DNA of 64,000 nucleotides from Candidatus Omnitrophota bacterium. GTDB lineage: Bacteria > Omnitrophota > Gorgyraeia > Gygaellales > Profunditerraquicolaceae. Both the position numbers and the translations under genes were made by a program. This document shows, in pieces, positions 4,273-46,894 of the stretch. Location of the stretch: positions 286,855-350,854 of the forward strand of contig JBAZJY010000002.1 in NCBI GenBank assembly GCA_041651115.1, in the 5' to 3' direction. Below the pieces are notes generated by a model, which was given only the letters and a program-made list of their open reading frames with translations, made no database searches and was not told where the DNA came from. How positions within the stretch are numbered: position 1 is the stretch's first letter; every line of letters begins with the position of its first letter.

Positions 4273-4306
4273 CCGATATTTTTTGGGTGTATAATATAAA
4301 GGAAGA

Positions 4307-4337
4307 GATACCCAACTCAATCGGATGAGTTGGTATC
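4307..4337 (+). promoter_or_regulatory. Hairpin 1 with conserved AUCGGAUG loop (12-bp stem GATACCCAACTCA/TGAGTTGGTATC, 1-nt bulge), at predicted 5' end of transcript from TATAAT at 4290
   Basis: Read directly; loop ATCGGA(TG) identical to hairpins at 14697-14718 and 15970-16000 while stems differ (covariation); SD GGAGGAGGG 25 nt downstream. Confidence 0.45.
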
Positions 4338-4362
4338 CCATTTTCTATGGGAGGAGGGAAAG

Positions 4363-4461
4363 ATGATGACGGGGTTGGCAATAATACTTGCAATAGTAAT
4401 AGTGCTTTTTTTGTGCAGGAAATTTGGCGGCGGCTGCGGATGCTGCGGCGGAAAAAAATGA
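4363..4461 (+). CDS. Candidate 32-aa single-TM peptide ending CRKFGGGCGCCGGKK
   Basis: ATG preceded by GGAGGAGGG at 8 nt; hydrophobic TM stretch TGLAIILAIVIVLFL; stop overlaps next start (ATGA) suggesting translational coupling; shares CGCCG motif with peptide at 16026. Confidence 0.35.
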   Translation: MMTGLAIILAIVIVLFLCRKFGGGCGCCGGKK

Positions 4462-5207
4462 AGACGTTCGCCATTAAGGCCCAGTTGGTTGTTTTCCTTT
4501 CCTTCTTTGCGTTTTACCTCTCTTTTATCGATAAAGATAGCCGGTTCCTGCTTGCCCTGCTTGTTGCCGTGGCTTCAACTGCAGCCATAGACACGGCTTT
4601 TACTCTTCTCAAGCAAAAAAAATTCTCCATAACTTCCAGCTCCCTGATATCGGGCTTGATCATCGGGTTTGTGCTTTCAAGCGACCTGCCTTTATGGACT
4701 ATTGCCCTGGCTTCGCTGATCGCCATTGCCTCCAAGCATCTGATCAATTTTAAAGGCAGGCATGTGTATAACCCGGCAGCGCTGGGGATATTCGCGGTGA
4801 TAATAAGCCTGGACGCTTCCACGCAATGGCGGGGCACTTATTTTTGGCAGGCCCTTGTGCCTGCGGGATTATATTTTTCCTATAAGATCAGGAAGCTGGA
4901 GGTTATCGTCAGTTATTTTGTTGCCGGCTTTGCCTTATTCGGCGCTCAGGCTTTAATGCAGGGAGTAAGCCTGTCAAATGTCTTTGGCTACTTTAGTTAT
5001 TTTTACATATTCATCATGGTCATTGAGCCTAAAACAACGCCGACTAATCTGTTGGGTAAAGTGATCTTTGGCGTAATGCTTGCCGGCTTGATCTTTGTCC
5101 TCACCGGCGCAGCTGTCAGATTTGATGTTGAGCTTGCCAGCCTCTTGGCCATGAACAGCGCGACGCCGTTATTGAACCGGCTGAATATCGCCAAAAAGGG
5201 AGGGTAG
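4458..5207 (+). CDS. Integral membrane protein (about 8 TM), possible copper-associated (CopD-like?) or NqrB/RnfD-like; unassigned
   Basis: 249 aa from ATG at 4458 (the 4347 start in the ORF track is an upstream extension in the same frame through the small-ORF region); strongly hydrophobic; genomic context copA / CopC-like. Confidence 0.5.
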   Translation: MKTFAIKAQLVVFLSFFAFYLSFIDKDSRFLLALLVAVASTAAIDTAFTLLKQKKFSITSSSLISGLIIGFVLSSDLPLWTIALASLIAIASKHLINFKGRHVYNPAALGIFAVIISLDASTQWRGTYFWQALVPAGLYFSYKIRKLEVIVSYFVAGFALFGAQALMQGVSLSNVFGYFSYFYIFIMVIEPKTTPTNLLGKVIFGVMLAGLIFVLTGAAVRFDVELASLLAMNSATPLLNRLNIAKKGG

Positions 5208-5549
5208 GTGAAGAGGGCATTTTTTGTTTTATTGCTTATTTTTAGCGTGTGTGCGCCGGCGTTTGCGCACCCGCCATCTAAGATAATTATTTCTTACGAT
5301 CCTACCGTAGGGGAATTGCAGGCGCTGATTATCCATAATGTCAGTTCACCGGAAAGCCATTATATAAAAAAGATAGATATCGGGCTTAACGGTAAGGAGA
5401 TTGCCGAGCTTGAGTTTTCCCGGCAGGACAACAATGTCACCCAGACTCTCACCTATTTTATCCCGAATGTCAAGCCTGGCGATACCCTTTCAGTCGAGGC
5501 GTATTGCAGCATCAGCGGAAAGCTTGAGAAAGAAATAAAGGTCCAGTAG
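5208..5549 (+). CDS. Exported small beta-rich protein, CopC-like periplasmic copper-binding protein candidate
   Basis: 113 aa; signal peptide ...CAPAFA then mature N-terminus HPPSK (CopC family mature proteins begin His-Pro); context next to copA. Confidence 0.35.
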   Translation: MKRAFFVLLLIFSVCAPAFAHPPSKIIISYDPTVGELQALIIHNVSSPESHYIKKIDIGLNGKEIAELEFSRQDNNVTQTLTYFIPNVKPGDTLSVEAYCSISGKLEKEIKVQ

Positions 5550-5587
5550 CAAACTCCGGCCGTAATTTAAAAAATATTATTTTTCCC

Positions 5588-5617
5588 TTGACAAATGATA
5601 CTATTATGGTATCATTT
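5588..5617 (+). promoter_or_regulatory. Promoter (TTGACA -35 / TATCAT -10) overlapped by 9-7-9 perfect palindrome AAATGATAC-N7-GTATCATTT; candidate Rrf2 operator
   Basis: Read directly; sits 20 nt upstream of the Rrf2 regulator start; Rrf2 (NsrR/IscR) sites are AT-rich palindromes of similar size. Confidence 0.45.
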
Positions 5618-5637
5618 ACCAAGAATGGAGAAGAGCG

Positions 5638-6045
5638 ATGAAACTTATAACCAGGGATACGGATTACGCGGTAAGGGCGCTGGCGTATGTCGCAGCGGCC
5701 AGGCAGGACGTAGTTTCTGTAACGGAGTTGGTAAAAAAATTAAAGATCCCGCGGCCTTTCCTGCGCAAGATCCTCCAGACACTCAATAAAAAAGGGATCC
5801 TTGAATCGGCTAAGGGCTTTGGCGGCGGGTTCCGCCTGGCGGTTAAACCCGGGGATGTTTACTTGCTTAAGCTGATGGAAATTTTTCAGGGAAAATTCAG
5901 GCTTAATGAATGCCTTTTAAAAAATAAGTTTTGCCCGAATATTTCCCGCTGTCCGCTGCGCAAGAAAATAAACAACATCGAGCGTTATGTTATATCGGAA
6001 TTAAAAGGCGTTACTCTGGCTTCTTTAAATAAGAGGGGTGGATGA
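5638..6045 (+). CDS. Rrf2-family transcriptional regulator (NsrR/IscR-like, Cys-containing)
   Basis: 135 aa; N-terminal wHTH pattern DYAVRALAYVA...SVTELVKKL; C-terminal cysteines CLLKNKFCPNISRC consistent with Fe-S-binding Rrf2. Confidence 0.8.
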   Translation: MKLITRDTDYAVRALAYVAAARQDVVSVTELVKKLKIPRPFLRKILQTLNKKGILESAKGFGGGFRLAVKPGDVYLLKLMEIFQGKFRLNECLLKNKFCPNISRCPLRKKINNIERYVISELKGVTLASLNKRGG

Positions 6046-6275
6046 TGTTTTCTGGTTGTCCCGGGCAGGATAAACGGAATATTAAGGTTGAGTCAATCGC
6101 TTGTACGGCGTGCGGCTACGCAGTGGAGATATTTTCTGATGAGGCGAGGCAGAAATGCCCGAAATGCGGAAATTGGGCTAACCGCCAGAAGCTTGCCTCT
6201 TGCGCCTTGTGGTGCAAATCCGCCCGGGAGTGTATCGGTGAAGAGCGGTGGGAACAATTAATCAGGGGAGGTTGA
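6042..6275 (+). CDS. Small Cys-rich zinc-ribbon-like protein
   Basis: 77 aa, 8 Cys including CTACG...CPKCG ribbon pairs; overlaps rrf2 stop, immediately precedes hcp. Confidence 0.45.
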   Translation: MMFSGCPGQDKRNIKVESIACTACGYAVEIFSDEARQKCPKCGNWANRQKLASCALWCKSARECIGEERWEQLIRGG

Positions 6276-6278
6276 AAA

Positions 6279-7571
6279 ATGTTCTGCTATCAATGTGAAC
6301 AGACAGCAGGCGGTACCGGATGCCTAAAAACCGGAGTGTGCGGCAAGAATGAAGATATTCAAAGCCTGCAGGATATATTATTATTCGGCTTAAAGGGCAT
6401 TGCCGCGTATGCCTTTCACGCGCAGGAATTGGGCGCCAGAGATGCAGAAGTTGATGCGTTCATGCACGAAGCATTGTTTAAGACCATAACTAACGTCAGT
6501 TTTGACATCAATCAGTATGTCGGCATGGTCTTAAAATGCGGCGAGATGAACTTAAGGGTAATGGAACTTCTGGATAAGGCACATACGCAGAAGTTCGGGA
6601 ATCCCGTGCCTACGGCAGTGCCTACGGGTACGCGCAAAGGGCCGGGGATCCTTATAACCGGCCATGATCTGCTTGACCTTTATGAATTATTAAAACAAAC
6701 CGAAGGTACCGGGATAAACGTTTATACCCACAGTGAGATGCTTCCGGCGCACGGTTATCCGGAACTTAAGAAATTCAAGCATCTGGCAGGAAACTACGGT
6801 GGCGCATGGCAGGAACAAAAGAAGGAATTTAATGAATTTAGCGGCGCGATCCTGGTTACCACTAACTGCGTGCTTATCCCGCCGCAAAATTCCTACCTTG
6901 ACCGGCTGTTTACCGTAGGTATTGCAGGCGTAGAATGCGCAGCACATATAAAAAACAGAGATTTCTCTGCCGTGATTGCAAAGGCAAAGTCCTTGCCGCC
7001 CCTGCCGGAAGCCCCCGGGAAAACCATTATGACCGGTTTTCACCATACGGCGATCCTCGGCCTGGCCGATAAGATCATTGCCGCGGTAAAAGCCGGAAAG
7101 ATCAGGCGTTTCTTCTTGATCGGCGGCTGCGACGGAGCAAAACCGGGGCGTAATTATTATACGCAGCTTGCGGAAATTGTGCCCAAGGATTGCGTGATCC
7201 TGACGCTTGCCTGCGGGAAATACCGTTTCAATAAGCTTGATTTCGGCGAGATCGACGGTATCCCGCGCTTGATTGACATTGGCCAGTGCAATAATGCCTA
7301 TTCGGCAATACAGGTGGCGGCTGCTTTGGCAAAGGCATTTAACTGCAGCGTTAATGAGCTGCCGTTATCGATCGTGCTTTCGTGGTTTGAGCAGAAGGCA
7401 GTGGCAATACTATTGACCCTATTATATCTTGGCATTAAAGGCATGCGTGTCGGCCCGACGCCCCCGGCGTTCATTTCCGCGAACGTGTTCAAGCTGCTTC
7501 AGGAAAAATTCGACCTGAAGTTGATCGCTACTCCGGAAAAGGACCTGGCGGATATGCTGCAGGCAAAATAA
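6279..7571 (+). CDS. hcp: Hybrid-cluster protein (hydroxylamine reductase), short class-III type
   Basis: 430 aa; N-terminal cubane-cluster motif MFCYQCEQTAGGTGC...GVCGK; hybrid-cluster region ligands; length matches the short Hcp class. Confidence 0.85.
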   Translation: MFCYQCEQTAGGTGCLKTGVCGKNEDIQSLQDILLFGLKGIAAYAFHAQELGARDAEVDAFMHEALFKTITNVSFDINQYVGMVLKCGEMNLRVMELLDKAHTQKFGNPVPTAVPTGTRKGPGILITGHDLLDLYELLKQTEGTGINVYTHSEMLPAHGYPELKKFKHLAGNYGGAWQEQKKEFNEFSGAILVTTNCVLIPPQNSYLDRLFTVGIAGVECAAHIKNRDFSAVIAKAKSLPPLPEAPGKTIMTGFHHTAILGLADKIIAAVKAGKIRRFFLIGGCDGAKPGRNYYTQLAEIVPKDCVILTLACGKYRFNKLDFGEIDGIPRLIDIGQCNNAYSAIQVAAALAKAFNCSVNELPLSIVLSWFEQKAVAILLTLLYLGIKGMRVGPTPPAFISANVFKLLQEKFDLKLIATPEKDLADMLQAK

Positions 7572-7654
7572 AAAACGTTTGTTAACACTAAAATAAGAAG
7601 ATATAATAGAGACAGTATTCATCCTGCCTGATATCTTCTGCCTGTGAGTATATA

Positions 7655-8368
7655 ATGGTGAAAGAAATAAGAGCGCGTTTTATAGAAAAAATACCCCGGA
7701 CCGGCTCGGTAGAGAGCTTCCGATTTACGCCGGCTGAAAGCCCCGGCTTTTTACCGGGGCAGGCAGCGCAGCTTATCTTTGACGAAAATAACCGGAATAA
7801 CCGGGAGTTGAATAAATACCTTTCTTTTTCTTCTTCGCCGGAGAGGGCTTATGTAGAGTTTACTAAAAGAATAAGCTCAAGCGCTTTTTCAAAGCAGCTG
7901 GAAAATTTAAAATCCGGCGATGAGGTTTTGCTGAAAGCGCCGGTAGGCAATTGCGTATTCAGGGATGATTACGCAAAGATCGGGTTTTTGATCGGTGGCA
8001 TCGGCATTACTCCGGTTATTTCCATAATTGAGCATATCATGGACAAAAAACTTACTACCGACGCGTTGCTCCTTTATTCTAACCGCACTGATGACGACAT
8101 TGCCTTTAAAGAAGAACTGGACCGCTGGCAGGCGCTCAATAAGAATATTAAGGTAAGCTATATCGTTACAGATTGTCAGCCAAAGGATAATACTTGCATA
8201 CGCGGCGTGATAGATAAAGAGATGGTAAGCGAGAAGGTCTATGAGCTTAACAAAAGGATATTTTTTCTCTTTGGGCCTCCGGGAATGGTCGCGGCGATGA
8301 ACAACCTGTGTTTGGATTTGGGTTGCAGCGGAGAAAATATTAAGGCGGAGAATTTTGTAGGGTACTAA
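7655..8368 (+). CDS. FNR-like FAD/NAD(P)H oxidoreductase (possible Hcp reductase partner)
   Basis: 237 aa; ferredoxin-reductase-type FAD-binding (RxYS-like) and NAD-binding GGIGITP motif; follows hcp. Confidence 0.65.
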   Translation: MVKEIRARFIEKIPRTGSVESFRFTPAESPGFLPGQAAQLIFDENNRNNRELNKYLSFSSSPERAYVEFTKRISSSAFSKQLENLKSGDEVLLKAPVGNCVFRDDYAKIGFLIGGIGITPVISIIEHIMDKKLTTDALLLYSNRTDDDIAFKEELDRWQALNKNIKVSYIVTDCQPKDNTCIRGVIDKEMVSEKVYELNKRIFFLFGPPGMVAAMNNLCLDLGCSGENIKAENFVGY

Positions 8369-8388
8369 TATTAAAATGGAGGTGGAAA

Positions 8389-8784
8389 ATGGCAGGGATG
8401 AAAGAATTATTTCAGGCAGCTGATTGGAAAGCGGAAAAGCACGTACCGGTGATTGAGGCGGCGGATAAGGTAAAAAAAGGCGCATGGGTCGGGATAACCG
8501 TCAGTATCGGCAAAGAGATTCCCCATCCTAATACTACGGAGCATCATATTGCCTGGGCTGCGGTTTATTTTCTAGCTGCGGGTGAAAAGTTCTCTTACGA
8601 AATAGCTAAATTTGAATTTAACGCTCACGGCTCTTCAGTGCAGGGCCCCAACACCAGCACGATCTTTACTCATGCCCAAGGCACCTGTAATTTTAAGACG
8701 GATAAGCCCGGCACGATCATTGCCGCTTCTTATTGCAATATCCACGGCTTATGGGAAAATTTCAAAGAATTGAGTGTAGAATAA
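8389..8784 (+). CDS. Superoxide reductase (neelaredoxin / 1Fe-SOR)
   Basis: 131 aa; EKHVPVI motif, His ligands HH...H and C-NIHGLW (CxxHGxW) typical of desulfoferrodoxin/neelaredoxin centre II. Confidence 0.8.
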   Translation: MAGMKELFQAADWKAEKHVPVIEAADKVKKGAWVGITVSIGKEIPHPNTTEHHIAWAAVYFLAAGEKFSYEIAKFEFNAHGSSVQGPNTSTIFTHAQGTCNFKTDKPGTIIAASYCNIHGLWENFKELSVE

Positions 8785-9663
8785 ATGACTGAGCTGGATC
8801 CGCAGTTAAGGGACAGGATACTTAAGATACAGCAAAACGAGATCACCGAATACTTGATCTATAAAACGCTTGCTGCGATCGCCGGCTTAAAGCAGGATAA
8901 AAATAAAGCCGTGCTTGAGGCGATCTCCAACGATGAACTGTCCCATTATAACTTCTGGAAGAATTTTACGCAGGCGGAGGTAGCGCCGCAGCGGCTTAAG
9001 GTGAATTTTTACCTGTTCCTTGCCAGGACGCTTGGCTTAAGTTTCAGCCTTAAATTGATGGAGTCCGGCGAAGAAAACGCGCAATTAGTTTATGGAAAGC
9101 TTGCCTCGCTCGACCCGCAGGTAGTAAAAGTGATGCAGGATGAAGAACGTCATGAGCAGGAAGTCTTGGCGCTCATTGACGAAGAGCGGCTTAAGTATAC
9201 CGGTTCGATCATCCTCGGCCTTAACGACGCGCTGGTTGAATTGACCGGAGCGCTTTCCGGATTTACCCTAGCTTTGCAGAAAACAAAATTGATTGCCGTA
9301 GTCGGCCTGATTACCGGCATTGCCGCGGCGCTTTCTATGGCAGGTTCGGAATACCTCTCAACTAAAGAAGAGGGGTCAAAGAGCCCGGTTAAAGCGTGCG
9401 TATATACGGGAATAGCCTATATTTTTACCGTTATATTACTGATTCTACCCTTTTTTATCTTTCAGAGCCCTTTTGTCGCATTGGGATTGACAGTGTTTTT
9501 TGTTGCCTGCGTGATCTTTATTTTTACTTTTTACGTATCGGTTGCCAAGGGTCTTAATTTTAAGACGCGTTTTTTTGAGATGCTGGGGATTGCCCTTGGC
9601 GTTGCTATATTGAATTTCTTTATTGGATTGGCAGTAAAAAAATACCTGCATATTGACGCATAA
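8785..9663 (+). CDS. VIT1/CCC1-family iron/manganese transporter with N-terminal ferritin-like domain
   Basis: 292 aa; N-terminal rubrerythrin/ferritin-like helices (ELSHYNFW, EERHEQE); C-terminal membrane domain with GLNDALVELTGALSG signature of the VIT family. Confidence 0.6.
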   Translation: MTELDPQLRDRILKIQQNEITEYLIYKTLAAIAGLKQDKNKAVLEAISNDELSHYNFWKNFTQAEVAPQRLKVNFYLFLARTLGLSFSLKLMESGEENAQLVYGKLASLDPQVVKVMQDEERHEQEVLALIDEERLKYTGSIILGLNDALVELTGALSGFTLALQKTKLIAVVGLITGIAAALSMAGSEYLSTKEEGSKSPVKACVYTGIAYIFTVILLILPFFIFQSPFVALGLTVFFVACVIFIFTFYVSVAKGLNFKTRFFEMLGIALGVAILNFFIGLAVKKYLHIDA

Positions 9664-10517
9664 TGGAAAGAAAGATAACTTTCAAAGCCGGCCCGCTCAC
9701 GCTCGTAGGAAGGAACTTAAAAGTCGGCAACATCGCGCCCGAATTTAACGTAGTTTCCCAGGACCTGGCTGCTGTGCGGCTTTCCGATCTGGGGGCAAAG
9801 ATTAAAGTAATTTCTTCTTTTCCTTCGCTGGATACGCCCGTATGCGACCTGCAGGTAAAGGAATTCAATAAAAGGGCAGCCGGTTTTTCCGATGAAGTGG
9901 TCGTGATCGGGATAAGCAAAGACCTGCCCTTTGCCCAGAAAAGATTTTGCCAGGAAAACAGCATAAAAAACGAGACCGTTCTTTCCGACTATAAATCTTC
10001 TTCTTTTGCCATAAACTACGGCCTGCTCATAAAAGAGCTCAATCTTTTAGCAAGGTCGGTTTTAATCATCGACAAAAACAATATTCTGCGCTATTTTAAG
10101 ATCGTGGGAGAACTGACCAGCCCTCCGGATTACAGCGATGCGCTTAAAAACCTTGAGGAAGTCATAAAAATTCCGCTGCAGGCAGCTTCGAGGCCGGCTT
10201 TACCTGCGCGCTGTAAACCTTGCGAAATCGGCACTCCGCCGCTTTCCGAAGAAAAGATAGAGAAGCTGATTGCCGGATGCCCAGGGTGGGAATTAGTTGA
10301 AGGGAAAAAGATAACCCGGGAACTCAAATTCAAGGATTTCGCGGAGGCAAAATATTTTCTGGACATTGTTGCGCTGATCGCCGAAGAACAGGGGCATCAT
10401 CCGGCGTTGGCTATAATTTATAATAAGCTCAAAATCACGCTGACGACTCATGCATCCGGGGGGCTTACGGAAAACGATTTTATTATGGCCGGGATGATCA
10501 ATGAGCTGGAGGGATAA
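9663..10517 (+). CDS. Fusion protein: thiol peroxidase (Tpx, atypical 2-Cys peroxiredoxin) + pterin-4a-carbinolamine dehydratase (PCD/DCoH)-like domain
   Basis: 284 aa; residues 1-165 align to Tpx (FPSLDTPVC peroxidatic Cys, DLPFAQKRFC resolving Cys, EPDY); residues about 200-284 align to PCD (GWELVEGKKITRELKFKDF...EEQGHHP...TTHASGGLTENDF); linker with CKPC. Confidence 0.75.
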   Translation: MERKITFKAGPLTLVGRNLKVGNIAPEFNVVSQDLAAVRLSDLGAKIKVISSFPSLDTPVCDLQVKEFNKRAAGFSDEVVVIGISKDLPFAQKRFCQENSIKNETVLSDYKSSSFAINYGLLIKELNLLARSVLIIDKNNILRYFKIVGELTSPPDYSDALKNLEEVIKIPLQAASRPALPARCKPCEIGTPPLSEEKIEKLIAGCPGWELVEGKKITRELKFKDFAEAKYFLDIVALIAEEQGHHPALAIIYNKLKITLTTHASGGLTENDFIMAGMINELEG

Positions 10518-10519
10518 AT

Positions 10520-11026
10520 ATGAAGAAAGTGGCTGTTTTAGTTGAAGATCATTATCAGGTCCTGGAAGTATGGTATCCCTATCTACGGCTGCGCGAAGAA
10601 GGCATAGAAACCGTCCTTATCGGTACGGGAAAAAAACAATACTCAAGTAAAGAAGGTTATCCTGCTGAAGCAGAGTTGTCCATAAGGGATGCCAATGTTA
10701 CTGATTTTTCCGGCGTGATCATTCCCGGAGGGTATGCCCCTGACATATTAAGGCGGCATAAGGAAATAAACGATTTTGTGAAAGCAATGGATAAGGCAAA
10801 TAAGCTGGTTGCCGCGATCTGCCATGCGGGATGGGTACTGGTATCTGCTGGCGTGTTAAAGGGCCGCAAGGCAACTTGTTTTTCCGCGATAAAAGACGAT
10901 GTGATAAATGCCGGAGCTGAATATAGCGACAAGGAAGTTGTCGTAGACCGTAACCTTATTACGTCACGTAATCCTTATGACCTGCCGGCTTTTTGCCGGG
11001 AGATCATCAGGTATTTAAAGGGTTAA
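10520..11026 (+). CDS. DJ-1/PfpI family protein (class I glutamine amidotransferase-like)
   Basis: 168 aa; nucleophile elbow AAICHAGWVL, PGGYAP motif. Confidence 0.8.
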   Translation: MKKVAVLVEDHYQVLEVWYPYLRLREEGIETVLIGTGKKQYSSKEGYPAEAELSIRDANVTDFSGVIIPGGYAPDILRRHKEINDFVKAMDKANKLVAAICHAGWVLVSAGVLKGRKATCFSAIKDDVINAGAEYSDKEVVVDRNLITSRNPYDLPAFCREIIRYLKG

Positions 11027-11033
11027 ATCGGTT

Positions 11034-11921
11034 ATGAGTTTAGAACATTATCATTTGCATCATCGGTTGAATAAGCTTTCCCGTTTACGGCTGGCGCTAT
11101 TTTTGACCGGTTCAGGCATGGTCATTGAATTTGCCGGAGGCCTGCTTTCTAATAGCCTTGCCTTAGTTTCCGATGCCTGGCACATGGTAACGCATTTGTT
11201 TGCCCTGGGCATGAGTTATTTTGCCATCGTCCTTGCCTTAAGGCCGGTTACCAAACAGCATACTTACGGTTTATACCGGGCGGAGATCCTCGCGGCATTC
11301 ATTAACGGCATAGTCTTGATCTTTATTTCCGGGTATCTGGTATATGAAGCGGTAATGCGCTTTATCCATCCCGAAGAAGTAAAGATATTAGAAATGTTTT
11401 TAGTGGCGGTCATTGGCCTTATTATCAACGGCGCGAGTATTTATCTTCTTTCGCGCTCCGGTTCACATGACCTGAATATACGCAGCGCCATACTTCATGA
11501 AATAGGCGACCTTATATCAAGTGTTGCCGTAGTCGTCGGCGCCTTGTTTATTTTTTATACCCGAAATTACCTCATTGACGCGCTATTGACGTTCTTTATT
11601 GCCATCCTGATCGTTATCTGGTCAATAAAGCTGCTGGTTGATTCGGCGCATATCTTGCTTGAGGCTGCACCTAAGCATCTTGATATTGACTTGCTAGTCA
11701 CTCTGCTCAAGGATGAAATTCCCGGGATACATGAGGTGCATCATGTGCATGCCTGGACTATTGCTACGTCAATGTACGCGCTTACTGCGCACGTGGTGAT
11801 TGACGACTGTCATGTGAGTAAAGCCAACGATATTCTAATTAAGGTAAACGACCTGCTCAAAAAGAAATTTAATATTGAACATACAAATATTCAGTTTGAA
11901 TGTTTGATTAAAAAGGCATAA
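11034..11921 (+). CDS. Cation diffusion facilitator (CDF) family metal exporter (CzcD-like)
   Basis: 295 aa; His-rich N-terminus, 6 TM, HxxxD-type sites (SDAWHMVTH, HEIGD), C-terminal cytoplasmic domain. Confidence 0.8.
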   Translation: MSLEHYHLHHRLNKLSRLRLALFLTGSGMVIEFAGGLLSNSLALVSDAWHMVTHLFALGMSYFAIVLALRPVTKQHTYGLYRAEILAAFINGIVLIFISGYLVYEAVMRFIHPEEVKILEMFLVAVIGLIINGASIYLLSRSGSHDLNIRSAILHEIGDLISSVAVVVGALFIFYTRNYLIDALLTFFIAILIVIWSIKLLVDSAHILLEAAPKHLDIDLLVTLLKDEIPGIHEVHHVHAWTIATSMYALTAHVVIDDCHVSKANDILIKVNDLLKKKFNIEHTNIQFECLIKKA

Positions 11922-11946
11922 CGCCTAATCCGATAGGAGGATAAAA

Positions 11947-12138
11947 ATGAAAGCAGTAGTTAATCCAGAAATATGCATCGGCTGTACGCTTTGCGTAGGC
12001 ACATGCGCGGAAGTATTCCGGATGGAAGGGGACAAGGCAGTTGCCAACCGCGATCCGGTGCCGCCGAATTTATATGATTGCTGCAGAAGGGCTGCGGAAG
12101 AATGCCCGGTAGCGGCAATAGAGATTACCGAGGATTAA
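11947..12138 (+). CDS. Small [4Fe-4S] ferredoxin
   Basis: 63 aa; CIGCTLCVGTC...CP motif; precedes korAB. Confidence 0.75.
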   Translation: MKAVVNPEICIGCTLCVGTCAEVFRMEGDKAVANRDPVPPNLYDCCRRAAEECPVAAIEITED

Positions 12139-12154
12139 CAGGAGGCAGGAAAGG

Positions 12155-13828
12155 ATGAACGATGTTTCTATCCTTATCGGCGGTAAAGCCGGCTTTGGCA
12201 TAGATGCCGCCAGCCTGATTATCGGCGCCATACTAAATAAGCTGGGCTATCGCATCTATATCTACCGCGAGTATCCATCTCTTATCCGGGGCGGCCATAC
12301 GTTTTCCATTATCCGCGGCTGCCGGGAAAAGGTCTATACCCACCGCAATAAAATTGATTTTCTTCTTGCCTTAAATCAGGACACGTTCAACTTTCATAAG
12401 GATAAATTAAGAGACAACGGGGTTGTGGTTTATGACTCTGATGTGGTGAACATCGGCGATCTGCAGCCCGGTATGCAGGTTCTGGCTATTCCGGCTTCAA
12501 AAGTAGCCAAAGAAGAGAATGCCGCCGAAATTATGCGTAATACCTGTTTGATCGGAGCATTTTGTAAGGCTGCGGGCATAGGCTGGCCTATCCTGGAACA
12601 AGTATTTAAGAAGCGCATACCCAGAGAAACCGAGCAGAATTTAAAGGTTGCCTCGGTTGCTTATAACGAGGCGCATGAATTAGTAAAAATCCCCGGCTTG
12701 GATCAACCGGCATTGCCTATTATTACCGGCAACGAAGCTATTGGTTTAGGGTTAGTTGCAGCCGGCCTGAATGCTTACATTGCTTATCCTATGACCCCGT
12801 CTTCTGCTATCCTGCATTTTTTAGCCGGCATTACCGATAAAATCCCCTTAAAAGTCATCCATCCGGAGAGCGAGATCGCCGTAATGCTTATGGCATTAGG
12901 TGCTGCTTATGCCGGAGATAAGGTTGCTGTCGGCACTTCAGGCGGCGGATTCTGCCTGATGACCGAAGGCCTCAGCCTTAGCGCAATGGCAGAGCTTCCG
13001 GTCACGATTGTCTTGGGACAGAGAACCGGGCCAAGTACCGGCCTTCCGACTTATACCGGCCAGACAGAGCTACAATTTGCTTTAAGCGCCGGCCACGGCG
13101 AATTCAGTCGCTTTGTGGTTGCTCCCGGAGACGCCGAAGAAGCGTATTTCTGGTCGGCAGCCGCGTTAAACATGTCTTCCAAATATCAGATCCCGTCCAT
13201 TATTTTATCGGATAAGACCCTTGCCGAAGGCACGTATAGTTTTGATATTGCATCAGCCGGCGAAGTCAGCGCAGAGAAATTCCTTTTATGGGATAGGCAG
13301 GGGCAATATAAAAGATATCTGGATGCAGAAAACGGCGTATCTGGCCTGGCTTTTCCTTCGGATAAGGACGCGGTAGTAAAAATAAACAGCTACGAGCATG
13401 ACGAATACGGGATTACCACCGAAGACCCGGCAATCACCGTTAAAATGCAGGAAAAACGGCTGTGTAAAGGCGAATGCCTTAGCCAAGAATTAGAGAATTA
13501 TAAAACCGTGAACGTATACGGCAATGCTAAATCTAAAACAGCAGTACTTTGCTGGGGATCAAATAAGGGCGTTTGTATTGAAGCGGCAGAGAGCCTCGGA
13601 TTAAAAGTCATCCAGCCTGTGGTATTGTGGCCGTTTTCCGTTGGACAGTTCAAGCTCGCCCTAAAAGGCGTTAAACAGCTGATCTGCGTAGAAAACAGCG
13701 CTACTGGCCAGTTACCGGCTTTACTTAACAGTTTTGGCATTAAGACGGATAAAATGATCTTAAAATACGACGGTAGGCCGTTTGAATTGGCCGAGCTTGA
13801 AGCAAAGATTAAAGAGGCAATAAAATGA
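12155..13828 (+). CDS. korA: 2-oxoacid:ferredoxin oxidoreductase, fused gamma-alpha subunit
   Basis: 557 aa; N-terminal gamma-like domain plus alpha core (GNEAIGLG, YPMTPSS motifs). Confidence 0.8.
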   Translation: MNDVSILIGGKAGFGIDAASLIIGAILNKLGYRIYIYREYPSLIRGGHTFSIIRGCREKVYTHRNKIDFLLALNQDTFNFHKDKLRDNGVVVYDSDVVNIGDLQPGMQVLAIPASKVAKEENAAEIMRNTCLIGAFCKAAGIGWPILEQVFKKRIPRETEQNLKVASVAYNEAHELVKIPGLDQPALPIITGNEAIGLGLVAAGLNAYIAYPMTPSSAILHFLAGITDKIPLKVIHPESEIAVMLMALGAAYAGDKVAVGTSGGGFCLMTEGLSLSAMAELPVTIVLGQRTGPSTGLPTYTGQTELQFALSAGHGEFSRFVVAPGDAEEAYFWSAAALNMSSKYQIPSIILSDKTLAEGTYSFDIASAGEVSAEKFLLWDRQGQYKRYLDAENGVSGLAFPSDKDAVVKINSYEHDEYGITTEDPAITVKMQEKRLCKGECLSQELENYKTVNVYGNAKSKTAVLCWGSNKGVCIEAAESLGLKVIQPVVLWPFSVGQFKLALKGVKQLICVENSATGQLPALLNSFGIKTDKMILKYDGRPFELAELEAKIKEAIK

Positions 13829-14676
13829 GTGATAAGAATTTAAATACTTACGCCGTCAACACATGGTGCCCGGGTTGCGGCAACTTTTCCATACTTAACG
13901 CGATCAAGTCCGTACTTTTGTCTTTGGCGCAGGAAGGGCTTGGCCTGGAAAACGTAGTTTTGGTGTCCGGCATAGGATGCCACGCAAAGATCGTGGATTA
14001 CATAGACGTAAACAGTTTTTATTCCATACACGGCAGGGCAACCCCGGCTGCCAGCGCGATAAAGATCAGCCGTCCGGGATTAAAAGTGATCGCTTTTGCC
14101 GGAGACGGAGACGCTTACGGCGAGGGTTTAGAACATTTAATATTTGCCGCAAAGCGTAATGTTGATATCACGATGATCATCCATAATAACCGTGTTTACG
14201 GGCTGACCACCGGCCAATACACACCTACCTCGCCGTTGGGTTTTAAAGGAAAGTCCACTCCGATGGGGACAAAAGAATCGCCGATAAATCCGCTTGAGTT
14301 GATGCTTTCCTGTGGCGCAGGCTTTATCAGCCGCGGCACGTCCCACGGTATAGAGCTGCTCAAAAAAATCTTTAAAGAAGCGATACTTCATAAGGGGTTT
14401 TCCATCGTAGACGTGCTACAGGTTTGCGTAACGTATTATAATATGTATGAATATTACGATAAGCGCGTTTATGAGCTTACCGGCCATAATCCGCAGGATT
14501 ACAAGCTGGCTATGGATAAAATACGCGAGTGGGATTATAATAAAGACGCTCCTATTGGTTTGGGGGTTTTTTACAAAAAAGAGTCAGCTGTATTCGAAGA
14601 AGGTTTTCCCAGGGCAGCTACAGCGGACACGGAGAGGCCGGAAAAAATAAAGCAAATCCTGGCGGGTAGGCTTTAG
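13825..14676 (+). CDS. korB: 2-oxoacid:ferredoxin oxidoreductase, beta (TPP-binding) subunit
   Basis: 283 aa; CPGCG N-terminal Cys cluster, TPP motif GDGDAYGEG...NN; start overlaps korA stop. Confidence 0.85.
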   Translation: MSDKNLNTYAVNTWCPGCGNFSILNAIKSVLLSLAQEGLGLENVVLVSGIGCHAKIVDYIDVNSFYSIHGRATPAASAIKISRPGLKVIAFAGDGDAYGEGLEHLIFAAKRNVDITMIIHNNRVYGLTTGQYTPTSPLGFKGKSTPMGTKESPINPLELMLSCGAGFISRGTSHGIELLKKIFKEAILHKGFSIVDVLQVCVTYYNMYEYYDKRVYELTGHNPQDYKLAMDKIREWDYNKDAPIGLGVFYKKESAVFEEGFPRAATADTERPEKIKQILAGRL

Positions 14677-14751
14677 CACCCGAACCTAAAATGCACCTTG
14701 CCCTATCGGATGGGCAAGTGTCCCGCCTACTGCGGGAATGGTTCGGTGTGC
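14676..14751 (+). promoter_or_regulatory. Composite hairpin element 2: outer stem GCACCCGAACC/GGTTCGGTGTGC enclosing hairpin CTTGCCC-TATCGGAT-GGGCAAG and hairpin CCCGC-CTACT-GCGGG; begins at korB stop codon
   Basis: Read directly; same outer stem sequence and same ATCGGATG loop as element at 15970-16000; followed by small hairpin and SD AAGAGG before fprA ATG. Confidence 0.45.
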
Positions 14752-14775
14752 ACTTGCTGTGCAAAGAGGCACATT

Positions 14776-15963
14776 ATGGCACGTATAGAGATCAAAAAAA
14801 ATATATTCTGGGTAGGCGCAGTTGACTGGAACATCAAGAATTTTCACGGCCATACCTATACGACAACAAGGGGTACGACTTATAACGCTTATTTGGTTAT
14901 TGATGATAAGATCGCCCTGGTAGATACTGTTTACGGCCCGTTCAGCGCAGAGCTCATTGAGAGAATAAGGCAGGTTATTGACCCGGCAAAGATAGATTAT
15001 ATTATAGCAAACCACGTAGAGACTGATCATTCAGGCGCTATGCCGGAGATCATGAAGCTCTGCCCCAAGGCAAAAGTTTTAGGCACAGCTAAATGCAAAG
15101 AAGGCCTATACAGAAATTATTACGGCAATTGGGATTTTCAAGTCGTAAAAACCGGGGATAAGCTGGAATTAGGCAAGAGGACCTTGTCTTTTATTGAAGC
15201 GCCGATGATCCATTGGCCGGATAGCATGTTTACTTATTGTCCTGAAGAGAAGCTTTTAATGCCCAATGATGCTTTTGGCCAGCACTATGCAACGGCAGAA
15301 AGATTTGATGATGAGGTAAGTGATTGCGAACTGATGGATGAGGCGGAAAAATATTACGCTAATATCCTCTGGCCGCTAAGCGCGATCATTGGCAAAAAAC
15401 TTGAAGAAATAATCAGTATGAATATTCCTATTGATATGATCGCGCCCAGCCACGGCATAATCTGGCGCAAGGACCCAAAAAAGATCATCAATGCGTATTC
15501 CTCGTGGGTAAAGAATACAACCCAGCCCAAAGCAGTCGTGCTTTATGAAACCATGTGGCGCTCCACGGAAATAATGGCGCGTAGAATCGCAGATGGCATT
15601 ATTGATTCCGGGATAATGGCAAAGGTTATTGATATAACGCAGGCTGACCGTACGGAAACGATCAAGGCATTATTCCAGGCAAAAGGTTATGTTATAGGCT
15701 CGTCCACCCACGATAACGACATGTTGCCGAATTTAGCAGGGTTCCTCGAGTTTCTTAAAGGGCTTAAGCCTCAAAATCGGCTTGCTGCGGCATTTGGTTC
15801 GTATGGTTGGGCAGGGGGTGCCGTAAAAAATATTGAGTCGGTATTGGGCGCTTCAGGGATCAAGATCGTCCAGCCGGGGCTGGGTATTCAATACGTCCCG
15901 GATCAGGCCGGCCTGCAACAATGTTATGATTTCGGGAAGAGTTTTGCGGAAAACGTGAAATAG
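14776..15963 (+). CDS. fprA: Flavodiiron protein (rubredoxin:oxygen/NO oxidoreductase)
   Basis: 395 aa from ATG 14776 (the ORF-track start at 14698 would translate through the structured element; rejected); metallo-beta-lactamase-like diiron domain (HVETDHSG) + C-terminal flavodoxin domain. Confidence 0.85.
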   Translation: MARIEIKKNIFWVGAVDWNIKNFHGHTYTTTRGTTYNAYLVIDDKIALVDTVYGPFSAELIERIRQVIDPAKIDYIIANHVETDHSGAMPEIMKLCPKAKVLGTAKCKEGLYRNYYGNWDFQVVKTGDKLELGKRTLSFIEAPMIHWPDSMFTYCPEEKLLMPNDAFGQHYATAERFDDEVSDCELMDEAEKYYANILWPLSAIIGKKLEEIISMNIPIDMIAPSHGIIWRKDPKKIINAYSSWVKNTTQPKAVVLYETMWRSTEIMARRIADGIIDSGIMAKVIDITQADRTETIKALFQAKGYVIGSSTHDNDMLPNLAGFLEFLKGLKPQNRLAAAFGSYGWAGGAVKNIESVLGASGIKIVQPGLGIQYVPDQAGLQQCYDFGKSFAENVK

Positions 15964-15969
15964 CAAGTA

Positions 15970-16000
15970 GCACCCGAACCTATCGGATGGTTCGGTGTGC
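15970..16000 (+). promoter_or_regulatory. Hairpin 3: GCACCCGAACC-TATCGGAT-GGTTCGGTGTGC, directly after fprA stop, followed by GCGC hairpin and SD AAGGAGG
   Basis: Read directly; loop identical to hairpins 1 and 2. Confidence 0.45.
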
Positions 16001-16025
16001 GCTTAACTGCGCAAAGGAGGACGAT

Positions 16026-16091
16026 ATGGGTTGCGGATGTTGCGGAGCAGCAAAGAAGAAGCCGAAAAAGAAAGCAAAGAAGAGAAAATAA
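16026..16091 (+). CDS. Candidate 21-aa peptide MGCGCCGAAKKKPKKKAKKRK (Cys-rich N-terminus, polybasic tail)
   Basis: ATG 5 nt after perfect SD AAGGAGG; shares CGCCG motif and nucleotide string TGCGGATG(C/T)TGCGG with the 4363 peptide; not in supplied ORF track (<60 aa). Confidence 0.35.
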   Translation: MGCGCCGAAKKKPKKKAKKRK

Positions 16092-16165
16092 ACATTATTG
16101 CCTTAACCGGCTTTGGCTTATAACCCGAGCCGGTTGAGGCAGCATCAACAACAGGAGATCTTAGT

Positions 16166-16324
16166 ATGGCTAAATATCGTTGCACTGTTTGCGGTTATGT
16201 TTATGATCCTGCTGCCGGAGACGCGACTCAAGGCATTGCCCCGGGCACAGCGTTTGAAAGCCTTCCTGCGGGATGGACCTGCCCTGAATGCGGAGTAGGC
16301 AAGGACATGTTTGAAAAAATTTAA
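16166..16324 (+). CDS. Rubredoxin
   Basis: 52 aa [15 protein letters not shown]...[17 protein letters not shown]; two CxxCG knuckles; SD ACAGGAG upstream; not in ORF track (<60 aa). Confidence 0.85.
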
Positions 16325-19024: not shown

Positions 19025-19465
19025 ATGAAGATTACCTATAAGGGCGATTATGCATTAAAGGCGGTTTTGGACCTGGCAATACATTATGATCGGGAGTTAG
19101 TCACCAGCCATGATATGGCTAATCGCATAGATACTCCGATTAAGTTCCTGGAACAGATATTACTGGATCTCAAAAAGGGCGGTTTTATTGAAAGCCGGCG
19201 CGGGAAAGTCGGAGGTTATTTATTAGCCAAATCTCCCGCTGAAATTACAGTAGGGGACGTAATCAGGTTTATTGAAGGGCCGATAGAGCCGGTTGCCTGC
19301 GCAAAAGACGGATACACAGAATGCAGGGACTTATATAAATGTGTTTTTAGGAAAATCTGGCAGGATGTGGCACAAGCAACATCAGGGATTATAGACAACA
19401 TTACTTTTAAAGAGTTGGCCAGCCGGGTTAGTTCTGCGCAGCAACTGCCGGCTTACTCAATTTAA
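19025..19465 (+). CDS. Rrf2-family transcriptional regulator (second copy)
   Basis: 146 aa; wHTH DYALKAVLDLA...; Cys triad CAKDGYTECRDLYKC; TTGACA/TATACT promoter upstream. Confidence 0.75.
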   Translation: MKITYKGDYALKAVLDLAIHYDRELVTSHDMANRIDTPIKFLEQILLDLKKGGFIESRRGKVGGYLLAKSPAEITVGDVIRFIEGPIEPVACAKDGYTECRDLYKCVFRKIWQDVAQATSGIIDNITFKELASRVSSAQQLPAYSI

Positions 19466-21147: not shown

Positions 21148-22083
21148 ATGGGAAAAATATTTTCCGATATTACGAAAACCGTGGGCAATACACCTTTGGT
21201 GAAATTGAACCGTATCACCGAAGGGCTGGAGGCAACAGTATTGGTAAAGCTGGAATCTTTTAACCCACTCTCCAGCGTAAAAGACCGCATAGGAGTGTCA
21301 TTGATCGAAGATGCCGAGCGCAGAGGCTTGCTTAAAAAAGGCACTACGATAATTGAGCCGACCAGCGGTAACACAGGAATTGCTCTGGCATTCGTAGCTG
21401 CGGCAAAAGGCTACAAGCTTATTTTGACCATGCCCGATACCATGAGCCTTGAGCGCAGACAATTGCTCAAGATATTCGGCGCCGAGCTTGTGCTCACTGA
21501 AGGCGTAAAAGGGATGAAGGGAGCAATAGAGAAAGCCGAAGAGCTGGCAAAAAATACTCCTAATGGTTTTGTACCGCAGCAATTCAATAATCCGGCAAAT
21601 CCTGAGATCCACCGTAAGACTACAGCGGAGGAAATCTGGAATGATACAGACGGTAAGATCGATATTCTTGTTTCCGGAGTCGGCACCGGCGGCACGATCA
21701 CTGGAGTTGCGGAGGTAATAAAAAAGCGTAAACCTGAATTTAAGGCGATCGCGGTTGAGCCGGATGCTTCGCCGGTATTATCCGGCGGTAACCCTGGACC
21801 GCACAAGATCCAAGGCATCGGAGCGGGATTTGTGCCCCAGGTTCTAAATCGGGCGGTTATTGATGAGGTTATCCGCGTCACCAATGACCAGGCCGGAGAA
21901 ACCAGCCGTCAGCTGGCAAAACTGGAAGGTATTCTTGCGGGAATTTCCAGCGGCGCTAGCGTTTGGGCGGCATTGGAAGTGGCGAAAAGAAAAGAAAACA
22001 AAGGAAAGCTCATTGTGGTAGTGCTTCCCGATACGGGCGAGCGCTATCTTACTACATGGCTTTTCCAAGAGGTTAATCCATGA
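21148..22083 (+). CDS. cysK: Cysteine synthase A (O-acetylserine sulfhydrylase)
   Basis: 311 aa; PLP-lysine motif [26 protein letters not shown]. Confidence 0.85.
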
Positions 22084-45893: not shown

Positions 45894-45905
45894 AAGGAGA
45901 GAATA

Positions 45906-46876: not shown

Positions 46877-46894
46877 TAACCATGGAGGAGAGAA

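Follow-up and report, generated by a model that had tools for sequence, protein, structure and literature searches.

Two short open reading frames, ORF1 and ORF2, in the 64-kb stretch of Omnitrophota DNA analysed here (the window) are probably (probability about 0.6) both genuine translated microprotein genes whose products are likely thiol- or metal-binding, that of ORF1 in the membrane and that of ORF2 tethered to a polyanion or an acidic partner. Both are missed by current annotation, and their families are found across Omnitrophota. Neither peptide was present among 15 billion predicted proteins, indicating that the two ORFs are unannotated in the source MAG. ORF1 lies in the following surroundings:

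2047 to 4272: P-type ATPase with an HMA domain (copA), the gene 5′ of ORF1
4269 to 4297, forward strand: promoter-like site TTGACC-17-TAATAT, directly 5′ of hairpin copy A
4307 to 4338, forward strand: hairpin copy A (P1), with a bulged C and the loop AAUCGGAU; covariance model score 41.2 bits, E = 9e-10
4337 to 4359, forward strand: pyrimidine tract CCCAUUUUCU plus Shine–Dalgarno sequence (SD) GGAGGAGGG
4363 to 4461, forward strand: ORF1, 32 codons, with its ATG at 4363 and its TGA ending at 4461
4458 to 5207, forward strand: RnfD/NqrB-like membrane protein (PF03116), 249 aa, without Cys, translationally coupled to ORF1
5208 to 5549, forward strand: secreted beta-sandwich protein, 113 aa, 3′ of the RnfD-like gene

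ORF1 encodes the 32-aa peptide MMTGLAIILAIVIVLFLCRKFGGGCGCCGGKK, which is predicted to cross the membrane once and has RKFGGGCGCCGGKK as its C-terminal tail. The stop codon of ORF1 overlaps, as ATGA, the start codon at 4458 that NCBI calls for the RnfD-like gene. The predicted ORF1 transcript has hairpin A at its 5′ end, the relatives L009 and L098 keep the block TTTTTGGGTGTATAATAT at the promoter-like site, and in the predicted MFE fold the SD is paired with the pyrimidine tract. The secreted protein has a signal peptide that ends in AFA with an invariant His directly after it, its invariant residues are H21, H43, H51 and C100, and its modelled fold resembles that of SOR or SoxZ.

Comparison with relatives showed that L009 and L010 carry an 87%-identical ORF1 homologue in the same position. 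Between ORF1 and its L009 counterpart there were 13 synonymous and five non-synonymous changes and one in-frame codon indel, while the other two frames across the same stretch contained stops or showed the reversed substitution pattern. For ORF1 pN/pS was 0.13–0.27, with pS at 0.35–0.78. The members of its family are 27–37 aa long and consist of a TM helix, KK, a Gly run, CC, CGCC or CGCGCGC, and then KK; this TM-KK-GG-C(G)CC-KK architecture is common to seven GTDB species genomes and to the called homologues P0140–P0146, L179 and L180. Among loci found through FprA and RnfD-like queries, a way of retrieval that biases the context statistics of both families, the ORF1 homologue was directly 5′ of an RnfD-like gene in every locus with context retrieved (the seven GTDB loci, L009/L010 and L179/L180), and the gene on its own 5′ side encoded CopA, a YHS-domain permease, CitMHS or a cupredoxin with a CuA-like motif. 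Of the 79 genomes with usable upstream sequence, most keep the pair of RnfD-like and secreted proteins. Only seven of 79 RnfD-like loci contain ORF1, implying that the pair functions without it; ORF1 is most likely an optional accessory to this pair.

By the positive-inside rule the C-terminal tail of ORF1 would be cytoplasmic, so that ORF1 would be an inner-membrane protein whose KK, Gly run, CC/CGCC and second KK face the cytoplasm. The Cys thiolates of this tail most likely bind or pass on electrons or a metal, either Cu or Fe, a role that would be comparable to that of NqrM for Na+-NQR or of PF12669 proteins with FeoB. The PF12669 (FeoB_associated) proteins resemble ORF1 in being very small, in the order N-terminal TM helix, basic linker and Gly/Cys-rich C-terminal tail, and in having a gene that adjoins that of a metal-handling membrane protein. 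PF12669 was also the sole Pfam model with any signal on relatives of ORF1, at 14.8 bits for L110 and 15.8 bits for P0146, both below the Pfam gathering threshold of 27 bits, and the ORF1 of the window gave no match at E ≤ 1; membership of this family was rejected. The PF12669 Cys motif is Cx3-5Cx2-3Cx6-8C and the gene is 3′ of feoB (PMC8749426), whereas ORF1 has the spacing CC, CGCC or CGCGCGC, lies 5′ of the RnfD-like gene with no feoB nearby, and is hosted by Omnitrophota instead of Firmicutes or Bacteroidetes.

NqrM (DUF539), which has a proposed role in supplying Fe to the Fe-S centre within the membrane part of Na+-NQR (PMC12174285, PMC6209661), would be the best functional analogy, as it is likewise a small membrane-bound Cys protein encoded with NqrB/RnfD-type subunits. 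However, NqrM is about twice as long, the ORF1 locus is without NqrD/E-type subunits and the RnfD-like partner is without Cys, and ORF1 and its relatives gave no Pfam or NCBIfam match to the NqrM model at E ≤ 10. ORF1 was rejected as an NqrM itself, since the nqrABCDEF plus apbE context is absent and a lone RnfD/NqrB-like gene with a secreted protein is found instead. It was also rejected as CcoS/FixS, the small TM protein encoded 3′ of a Cu-ATPase and transcribed with it: there was no Pfam match, ORF1 is served by a conserved promoter-like site of its own and is coupled to the gene that follows it, and in other genomes the gene 5′ of it is not an ATPase.

ORF2 sits in an FprA-Rd-PNPOx-rubrerythrin-Grx-TrxR operon, where Rd is rubredoxin:

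14678 to 14757, forward strand: hairpin copy C, before fprA; z = −3.4, with the covariance model copy at 14692–14723
14776 to 15963, forward strand: fprA (flavodiiron protein), the gene 5′ of ORF2
15969 to 16000, forward strand: hairpin copy B (P1), with the loop UAUCGGAU, before ORF2; covariance model score 44.9 bits, E = 7e-11
15999 to 16020, forward strand: P2 mini-hairpin GCGC-UUAACU-GCGC, then the SD AGGAGG, 5′ of ORF2
16026 to 16091, forward strand: ORF2, 21 codons, with its ATG at 16026 and its TAA ending at 16091
16099 to 16142, forward strand: strong 16-bp hairpin without a U-tract, between ORF2 and rubredoxin; −30 kcal/mol, z = −4.6
16166 to 16324, forward strand: rubredoxin, the gene 3′ of ORF2

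The ORF2 peptide, MGCGCCGAAKKKPKKKAKKRK (21 aa), starts with MGCGCCG and continues as the Lys-rich tail AAKKKPKKKAKKRK, and its SD at 16015–16020 ends 5 nt before the ATG. Its family has 13 distinct members of 15–26 aa with the form M-[G/S/A]-C-G-x-C plus a Lys-rich tail, and GGAGG was found 5–8 nt 5′ of the start in all 13. Every member lies in an O2-defence cluster (fprA directly precedes 11 of them, SOR one and a ferredoxin gene one), with rubredoxin as the next gene in 10 of the 13, and FprA identity among the loci that carry ORF2 is only 67–73%. In a variant of the peptide, MCKSCGC is joined to a basic tail; it was found after a ferritin-like gene and an MsrA-like gene. Of 80 FprA loci only 12 carried ORF2, and the other close rubredoxin contexts checked were without it. 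The Cys3 codon was TGC in eight members and TGT in five, and the Cys6 codon was TGC in 10 and TGT in two of the 12 members with Cys at codon 6; the remaining member, in L094, reads C-G-C-G-C. Residue 2 is written with seven different codons and is always small (G, S or A), suggesting that removal of the initiator Met would be favoured.

The C-G-x-C of ORF2 is most likely a redox-active or metal-binding dithiol, and the polycationic tail may tether it to a polyanion (DNA, RNA or membrane) or to an acidic partner such as rubredoxin. The form M-[GSA]-C-G-x-C literally fits the MxCxxC Cu(I) site of HMA domains (CopZ, Atx1 and the CopA N-terminus), and a copA with an HMA domain beside ORF1 is a second likeness to these systems. 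ORF2 was nevertheless rejected as an HMA domain, as only the six-residue pattern fits and no PF00403 match was found; unlike HMA domains, it is without the ferredoxin-like fold of about 65 aa, and its Met is simply the initiator. ORF2 also resembles the C(P)XCG micro-proteins and rubredoxin knuckles, which work through a CxxCG metal knuckle, in being small, in having C-G-x-C-G and in adjoining rubredoxin. The archaeal C(P)XCG zinc-finger micro-proteins have at least two CxxC and 40–70 residues (PMC11241148), whereas ORF2 has one CxxC, 15–26 residues and more than 60% Lys or Arg. With a single C-G-x-C and no Rubredoxin match, it was rejected as a rubredoxin or zinc-knuckle protein, and a tetrahedral site cannot be formed from one CxxC without oligomerisation, which counts against the metal reading of ORF2. 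The tail KKPKKKAKKKKK has a K/P/A composition like that of the DNA-binding C-terminal tails of histone H1. Compared with the Lys-rich nucleic-acid-binding tails of the histone H1 CTD, the Dps N-terminus and small basic ribosomal proteins such as bL36, it showed no homology and ORF2 is far shorter. Among oxidative-stress proteins, Dps sets a precedent for attachment to DNA through a Lys tail.

The sequence-only reading of the window had given the coordinates and translations of both ORFs, the stop overlap and the SD 5 nt 5′, and all were borne out on recheck; the neighbours that it named, copA before ORF1 and rubredoxin after ORF2, were likewise found, the former as a P-type ATPase with an HMA domain. 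It had also reported a motif shared at the DNA level, and TGCGGATGYTGCGG indeed occurs exactly twice in the 64 kb, at 4435 and 16032. CGCCG is present in both peptides, as claimed, and in no other small ORF of the window. The idea of one shared family did not hold, as the invariant core is CC in ORF1 and C-G-x-C in ORF2, and relatives usually have V, K, S, Y or R in place of the middle Cys of CGCCG. ORF1 and ORF2 belong to two distinct families, and CGCCG is the conserved core of neither. Neither micro-ORF had a match in Pfam, NCBIfam, Rfam or PDB, which upholds the earlier view that no described family has this motif.

A conserved hairpin before each ORF had been noticed as well, and the covariance model located copies A and B there. 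Across the window the model gave three significant copies and no more, each on the forward strand. In copy C the outer stem sequence equals that of copy B and encloses two inserted stem-loops, and the inner loop at 14692–14723 is again UAUCGGAU. In the alignment 99% of cells were paired and seven of 10 pairs showed a compensatory change, and compensatory changes also distinguish hairpin A from its counterpart in L009. The leader hairpin is thus a covarying RNA module, and in relatives it also stands before other O2/ROS-defence genes, lying 5′ of Rd, SOR, Grx, Rrf2 and both micro-ORFs. In Rfam the hairpins of the window had no match at gathering score, with chance-level matches only at E ≤ 10.

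ORF2 could instead be mainly a cis-regulatory uORF or leader peptide, in which translation of the Cys codons and Lys run controls access to, or transcription of, rubredoxin and the peptide itself has no function. The position of rubredoxin downstream in 10 of 13 loci is consistent with this, as are the strong hairpin between ORF2 and Rd, the similar stems after the stop in most relatives, and the fact that Lys-codon runs can slow ribosomes. However, the distance to the next gene varies from 10 to about 300 nt, that gene is sometimes rubrerythrin-like or encodes a DoxX-like protein, and in L036 a canonical intrinsic terminator and three leader hairpins lie between the micro-ORF and Rd, which is preceded by the terminator plus about 450 nt. 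No conserved pair of alternative structures (terminator/antiterminator) was seen in the ORF2 loci, and amino-acid identity is under selection (synonymous Cys codons; G, S or A at residue 2), which a positional uORF does not need. An attenuator leader peptide was rejected on the variable downstream gene and spacing, and a regulatory uORF as the main role, one of the options raised by the sequence-only reading, is unlikely. That both ORFs are chance frames, or that ORF1 is a misreading of what is only the extended N-terminus of the RnfD-like gene, is effectively refuted already by sequence comparison. One gene caller, Logan, starts the RnfD-like gene at 4347 (a 286-aa call) and another at 4440, but the RnfD profile alignment begins near residue 11 of the 249-aa form, the RnfD frame shows 1.5 synonymous and 14.5 non-synonymous changes against L009 compared with 13 and 5 in the ORF1 frame, and homologous micro-ORFs were seen in more than 15 independent loci.

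RNA-level constraint does act on ORF2: all 13 members use GGA for the Gly at codon 4, whereas in neighbouring genes GGA makes up 15–16% of Gly codons. This invariance and a 23-nt identity between the window and L011 (AAGCCGAAAAAGAAAGCAAAGAA) show that part of the constraint is on the RNA and not the peptide, and the codon may be an extra RNA signal, possibly a protein-binding site beside the SD. It is very improbable that RNA alone, as GGA sites for a CsrA-like protein in the loop, SD and early ORF, is the functional entity and the frames are incidental. As in CsrA-controlled leaders, GGA occurs tens of nucleotides apart in the hairpin loop (AUCGGAU, AAAGGAU; nine of 12 seed loops), the SD (GGAGG) and the early coding region, and L094 has tandem arrays of up to five hairpins. 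Unlike those leaders, the module has a conserved stem sequence of its own, ACACCC...GGUGU, in which a C is bulged out, and is followed by a second mini-hairpin whose loop is U-rich, and some loops are without GGA. Moreover, all variation in the Cys codons is synonymous, the ORFs have kept their length, start codon and SD spacing, ORF1 has the low pN/pS given above, and micro-ORFs are kept without the hairpin in L011, L020, L028, L036 and L098. The suggestion of additional GGA-rich CsrA-titrating RNA is not supported for ORF1, as relatives have GGC in place of its GGA, and is supported in part for ORF2. A tblastn search for CsrA found nothing significant in about 0.8 Mb of flanking DNA, a coverage too small to be informative.

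The proposal that both ORFs encode real microproteins, for which conservation in relatives had been named as the check, is strongly supported, since the ORFs and their strong SD are kept in diverged relatives under purifying selection. In the source genome these two micro-ORFs, which lie in metal- and oxygen-defence operons, share the same 5′-leader hairpin module.

ORF1 and ORF2 are coding genes, conserved among relatives and located in operons for metal and O2 defence; in this genome a structured RNA leader is common to the two. The features concerned are as follows.

Features of the window and of relatives' loci (L numbers)
4363-4461, + strand: ORF1, 32 amino acids, translation MMTGLAIILAIVIVLFLCRKFGGGCGCCGGKK
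16026-16091, + strand: ORF2, 21 amino acids, translation MGCGCCGAAKKKPKKKAKKRK
4307-4338, 14678-14757 and 15969-16020, sense strand: leader RNA module, with the main hairpin P1 (ACACCC...GGUGU stem, bulged C), a mini-hairpin with UUUCU-type loop (P2) and a Shine-Dalgarno sequence (SD)
L094:3186-3407, L077:3186-3264, L027:3193-3271, L036:3606-3764, L001:5785-5955, L166:1499-1621: leader RNA module in relatives
4262-4362, compared with L098:940-1000: promoter-like block TTTTTGGGTGTATAATAT, common to both
4458-5549, and around position 2500-3600 in L099-L175: gene pair for an RnfD/NqrB-like membrane protein and a secreted beta-sandwich protein
16099-16142: 16-bp hairpin without U-tract between ORF2 and the rubredoxin gene (-30 kcal/mol, z = -4.6)
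L090:3577-3627 and L117:4643-4684: variant micro-ORFs MCKSCGCEEAKPKPKK and MCKSCGCKKKPRK, strong SD on both

The positions, the stop overlap, the SD and the neighbouring genes described by the sequence-only reading were all found in the sequence. ORF1 is preceded by a gene for a P-type ATPase with an HMA domain and ends in a TGA that overlaps the start codon (ATG at 4458) of a PF03116 gene. ORF2 carries AGGAGG 5 nt upstream of its start and lies between the genes for FprA (NCBI MFA5156728) and rubredoxin (NCBI MFA5156729).

A phmmer search of 1.84 billion representative proteins returned one relative of ORF1, P0020, which is encoded on two metagenome contigs at the matching position, 5′ of an RnfD-like gene and a 108-aa gene. 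Alignment with the DNA of the relative L009 showed 13 synonymous and 5 non-synonymous differences and one in-frame codon deletion in the ORF1 frame, with the ATGA overlap retained; the remaining two frames contained stops or chiefly non-synonymous change. Comparison of the window, L009 and L098 gave a pN/pS of 0.13-0.27. A homologous micro-ORF was present at the same position in 7 of the 79 GTDB species genomes carrying the RnfD-like gene (about 9% of loci). A profile search, in which the first row of the profile was the 43-aa TTG-extended form of ORF1, added the members P0140-P0146; P0145, the one whose contigs (L179, L180) were retrieved, also adjoins an RnfD-like gene. The family consensus is M-x(1-3), a transmembrane helix of about 18 residues, KK and G(2-5), followed by CC, CCC, CGCC or CGCGCGC, then G/S/T and a C-terminal KK, in 27-37 aa (a single relative has 48 aa); conservation does not extend to the juxtamembrane Cys18 of the window protein. 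One gene caller had assigned the region to an N-terminal extension of the RnfD-like gene (a 286-aa call), a reading that was rejected on the result of the frame test and the starting point of the Pfam alignment. Minus-strand ORFs over ORF1 (4232-4474) and ORF2 (16003-16185) were also discarded, having no family match and lying antisense to a block of same-strand genes.

Contigs encoding the rubredoxin P0014 (>90% identical) showed the gene order fprA-gap-rd-PNPOx-rubrerythrin-grx-trxR, as in the window. The fprA-rd gap on these contigs encodes MSCGVCGPRKPKKKAKKKKK, preceded by GAGGAGG, and their FprA is only 70% identical to that of the window. A metagenome scan with FprA returned 80 loci, 12 of which keep an ORF2-type micro-ORF with its SD; examples are MSCGKCGARKKKKTKKRSR, MGCGVCGSRKPRKKAKKKKKR, MGCGCCAPKKAKKKAKKKKR, MSCGSCGPKKPKKKAKKKKK, MGCGYCAPKKKAKKKVVKKKK, MSCGKCGKKKTAKKTTKKKATKKKKR, MSCGKCGAKKKKKKK, MGCGRCKAKKAKKKTKKKR, MACGVCGPKKPKKKAKKKKK and MACGCGCRKAKKAKKKTKKKK. 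Every family member has GGAGG 5-8 nt upstream; loose-pattern ORFs without an SD bore no resemblance to the family and were set aside, as was an in-frame upstream ATG at 15987, an unconserved codon within the hairpin loop that lacks an SD. The codons for both cysteines vary (TGC/TGT 8/5 at Cys3 and 10/2 at Cys6, the thirteenth member, L094, reading C-G-C-G-C), residue 2 is G, S or A, encoded by seven different codons, and residue 5 is unconstrained (C, V, K, S, Y or R). Codon usage of this kind speaks for selection acting on the peptide itself. Because of this residue and codon pattern, the invariant core of the family is M-[GSA]-C-G-x-C with a polybasic tail, not CGCCG. Two variants, after a ferritin-like and an MsrA-like gene, read MCKSCGC with a basic tail. 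Rubredoxin is the next gene in 10 of the 13 core members, and a small rubrerythrin-like or other protein in the rest; an obligatory partnership with rubredoxin was rejected, since rubredoxins >90% identical (P0006, P0009, P0011, P0012) occur in rearranged operons without ORF2. Stems like the 16099-16142 hairpin follow the micro-ORF stop in most relatives, the one in L036 being a canonical terminator. The same operons also encode small Cys-rich basic proteins of 45-52 aa (L001:5135-5278 and its L002 and L004 equivalents; L185:1896-2054), for example MKKPLRYRCAECGLAVTLERSCCCRQPFDITCCGELMRQGGRSRK and MAKRAKNTTKARKAKKGYSCSVCGLEITVDNVCGCVDTCDIICCGKDMNPRK, with 8 Cys and a basic tail at either end; these had no Pfam family.

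The sequence-only reading had joined ORF1 and ORF2 through a common CGCCG motif. This bond did not hold, as the two belong to separate families, and the likeness is largely coincidental, arising from Gly/Cys-rich composition. The shared DNA motif TGCGGATGYTGCGG does occur exactly twice, once per ORF; at the matching place, however, every relative of ORF1 has GGC instead of GGA, and the 14-nt motif is therefore specific to this genome. The suggestion that the micro-ORFs are GGA-rich, CsrA-titrating RNA accordingly finds no support in ORF1 and partial support in ORF2, where the Gly4 codon is GGA in 13/13 members against a GGA share of Gly codons of 15% in window genes and 16% in neighbouring fprA genes. 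Within the same family GGA is never used at Gly2 and all four codons are used at Gly7, and the window and L011 have an identical 23-nt tract in the Lys tail. The invariant GGA suggests that this part of the ORF2 mRNA is, in addition, recognised by some factor. The leaders and ORF2 show the CsrA-target sequence pattern, and a tblastn search with E. coli and B. subtilis CsrA, confined to operon-flank DNA, gave no significant match. That the micro-ORFs act purely as RNA is weakened by codon patterns that speak against it, the GGA at codon 4 of ORF2 being the point in favour of an RNA-level reading. A role of ORF2 as a regulatory upstream ORF is likewise weakened, by a downstream arrangement that varies between loci and by the terminator in L036. 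Both ORFs are best read as translated, conserved genes (probability about 0.9).

The hairpin alignment comprised twelve copies from seven loci and the window. In P1, a 10-bp stem with a bulged C closes a loop of 8-11 nt that in most cases contains GGA; 99% of the alignment cells pair, compensatory changes occur at 7/10 pairs, and every register-shift control collapses. These covariation counts apply to P1 alone, the P2 stems having been read directly from the sequence. With a covariance model, only three copies in the 64-kb window were significant; they lie on the sense strand, one each before ORF1, fprA and ORF2. The copies before fprA and ORF2 agree in the outer stem, within which the fprA copy holds two additional stem-loops. 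In relatives, the module is single or tandem (up to 5 copies); next come a mini-hairpin of 4-5 bp, whose loop is U-rich, and the SD. The module precedes genes for rubredoxin, superoxide reductase, glutaredoxin, Rrf2, Hsp20-like and EF-G-like proteins as well as both micro-ORFs. Many Omnitrophota have it, often in tandem, 5′ of genes for oxidative stress (rd, sor, grx, rrf2, fprA). The module is optional, ORF2 directly following the fprA stop in L011, L020, L028 and L036. In L098, the promoter-like block is kept and leads straight to the SD of ORF1 without a hairpin; the module thus resembles an insert placed between the -10 element and the SD. A promoter-like TTGACC-17-TAATAT lies just 5′ of the copy before ORF1, in the predicted fold of which the SD is paired with an upstream CCCAUUUUCU tract. 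Rfam, at the gathering score and at E <= 10, gave no relevant match for the hairpin, and the module itself appears to be a cis-regulatory motif not described before. Other repeats were seen as well: an 85-nt inverted-repeat element (TTAGGGACGGTTCTCAGCC...GGCTGAGAACCGTCCCTAA; 45811-45895 and 46795-46879, 94% identity) looks like a REP- or MITE-type element, and L064 has a related GGGGACGGTTCTCA repeat between ORF2 and rd (about 3415-3520). The stretches 21276-21848 and 33137-33709, about 73% identical and 11,861 bp apart (repeat families D1, D2, D7), are probably paralogous genes.

The RnfD-like protein beside ORF1 (NCBI MFA5156714) has about 250 aa and no Cys. A gene for a secreted protein of 113-118 aa lies 3′ of it in most of the 79 genomes. 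The signal peptide of this protein ends in A-x-A, immediately followed by an invariant His (AxA|HPPSDI), so that His is the predicted mature N-terminus; H21, H43, H51 and C100 are invariant. Its AlphaFold model (pLDDT 89.8) is a seven-strand beta-sandwich, for which the best PDB matches, superoxide reductases and SoxZ, are weak (E about 1e-3, TM 0.46-0.58). The protein could hold a His-brace-type metal site. The pair appears to be linked to metals, because its 5′ neighbours are CopA, a YHS-domain ArsP_1 permease, a CitMHS transporter or a protein with a CuA-like motif (H..C...C...H..M). ORF1 would be the sole source of cytoplasmic thiolates in the module, yet an optional one. Directly 3′ of the ORF1 operon (5638-7571) are genes for an Rrf2 regulator, a 77-aa protein with a rubredoxin-like zinc ribbon and a hybrid-cluster protein, and a second Rrf2 gene is found at 19025-19465; the genes from 4 to 19.5 kb together look like an O2/NO stress island.

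Neither peptide nor its relatives matched Pfam or NCBIfam above threshold, and neither window peptide was among about 15 billion predicted proteins. PDB sequence searches gave only a transmembrane-like chance match to a designed protein for ORF1 and no match for ORF2. With PF12669, NqrM, FixS, rubredoxin/zinc-knuckle micro-proteins, HMA domains and attenuator leaders, the peptides share general architecture and none of the defining features. In the literature search, neither peptide family nor the leader hairpin was described in any paper found, and nothing pertinent came up on CxxC/polybasic bacterial microproteins, small ORFs near flavodiiron/rubredoxin genes or CsrA in Omnitrophota. Both peptides are new variants within the broad class of Cys-containing microproteins, with a putative thiol/metal function.

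By the positive-inside rule, ORF1 would be oriented N-out, C-in, and its cytoplasmic Gly/Cys tail may hand metal or electrons on to the module of RnfD-like and secreted proteins. This proposed role resembles that of NqrM, which Na+-NQR requires for the insertion of its Fe-S centre (PMC12174285, PMC6209661), and that of PF12669 proteins, which adjoin FeoB (PMC8749426). In ORF2, Met1 is probably removed, because residue 2 is small, which would leave C-G-x-C as a candidate dithiol or metal site; the H1-like Lys/Pro/Ala tail may be a tether to a polyanion or to acidic partners, and the glutaredoxin and thioredoxin-reductase-like flavoprotein also encoded in the operon could recycle a disulfide. 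The odds on the proposed thiol/metal chemistry of the microproteins are about even. A more far-reaching reading, improbable when all its parts are taken together, is that Omnitrophota encode a previously unrecognised class of gene-encoded mini-thiols in two forms. One would be a 15-26-aa peptide with N-terminal [G/S/A]-C-G-x-C as a redox-active or metal-binding centre (Cu, Fe or Ni being candidates, with N2S2-type coordination, cf. the Ni-hook or a Cys-Gly-Cys site). The polylysine tail would bring it to nucleic acid, membrane or acidic redox partners, and the Grx/TrxR of the same operon would recycle it. The other, a membrane-anchored counterpart, would feed the new module of the RnfD-like protein and the secreted protein with predicted mature N-terminal His. 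Both would belong to a post-transcriptional O2-stress regulon, in which a GGA-binding factor reads the new tandem hairpin RNA motif.

Standard gene callers drop genes of <30 codons, and both micro-ORF families are therefore essentially invisible. Omnitrophota are a large, uncultured and mostly anaerobic phylum, and both genes are central in their oxygen- and metal-defence operons. The common leader hairpin offers a handle on a candidate stress regulon in this phylum, and the ORF1 operon draws attention to an uncharacterised membrane module, which most of the 79 species genomes examined share. The dithiol/metal reading is cheap to examine, because synthetic peptides suffice; should it prove right, the two peptides would rank with the smallest conserved gene products known to act in redox or metal handling.
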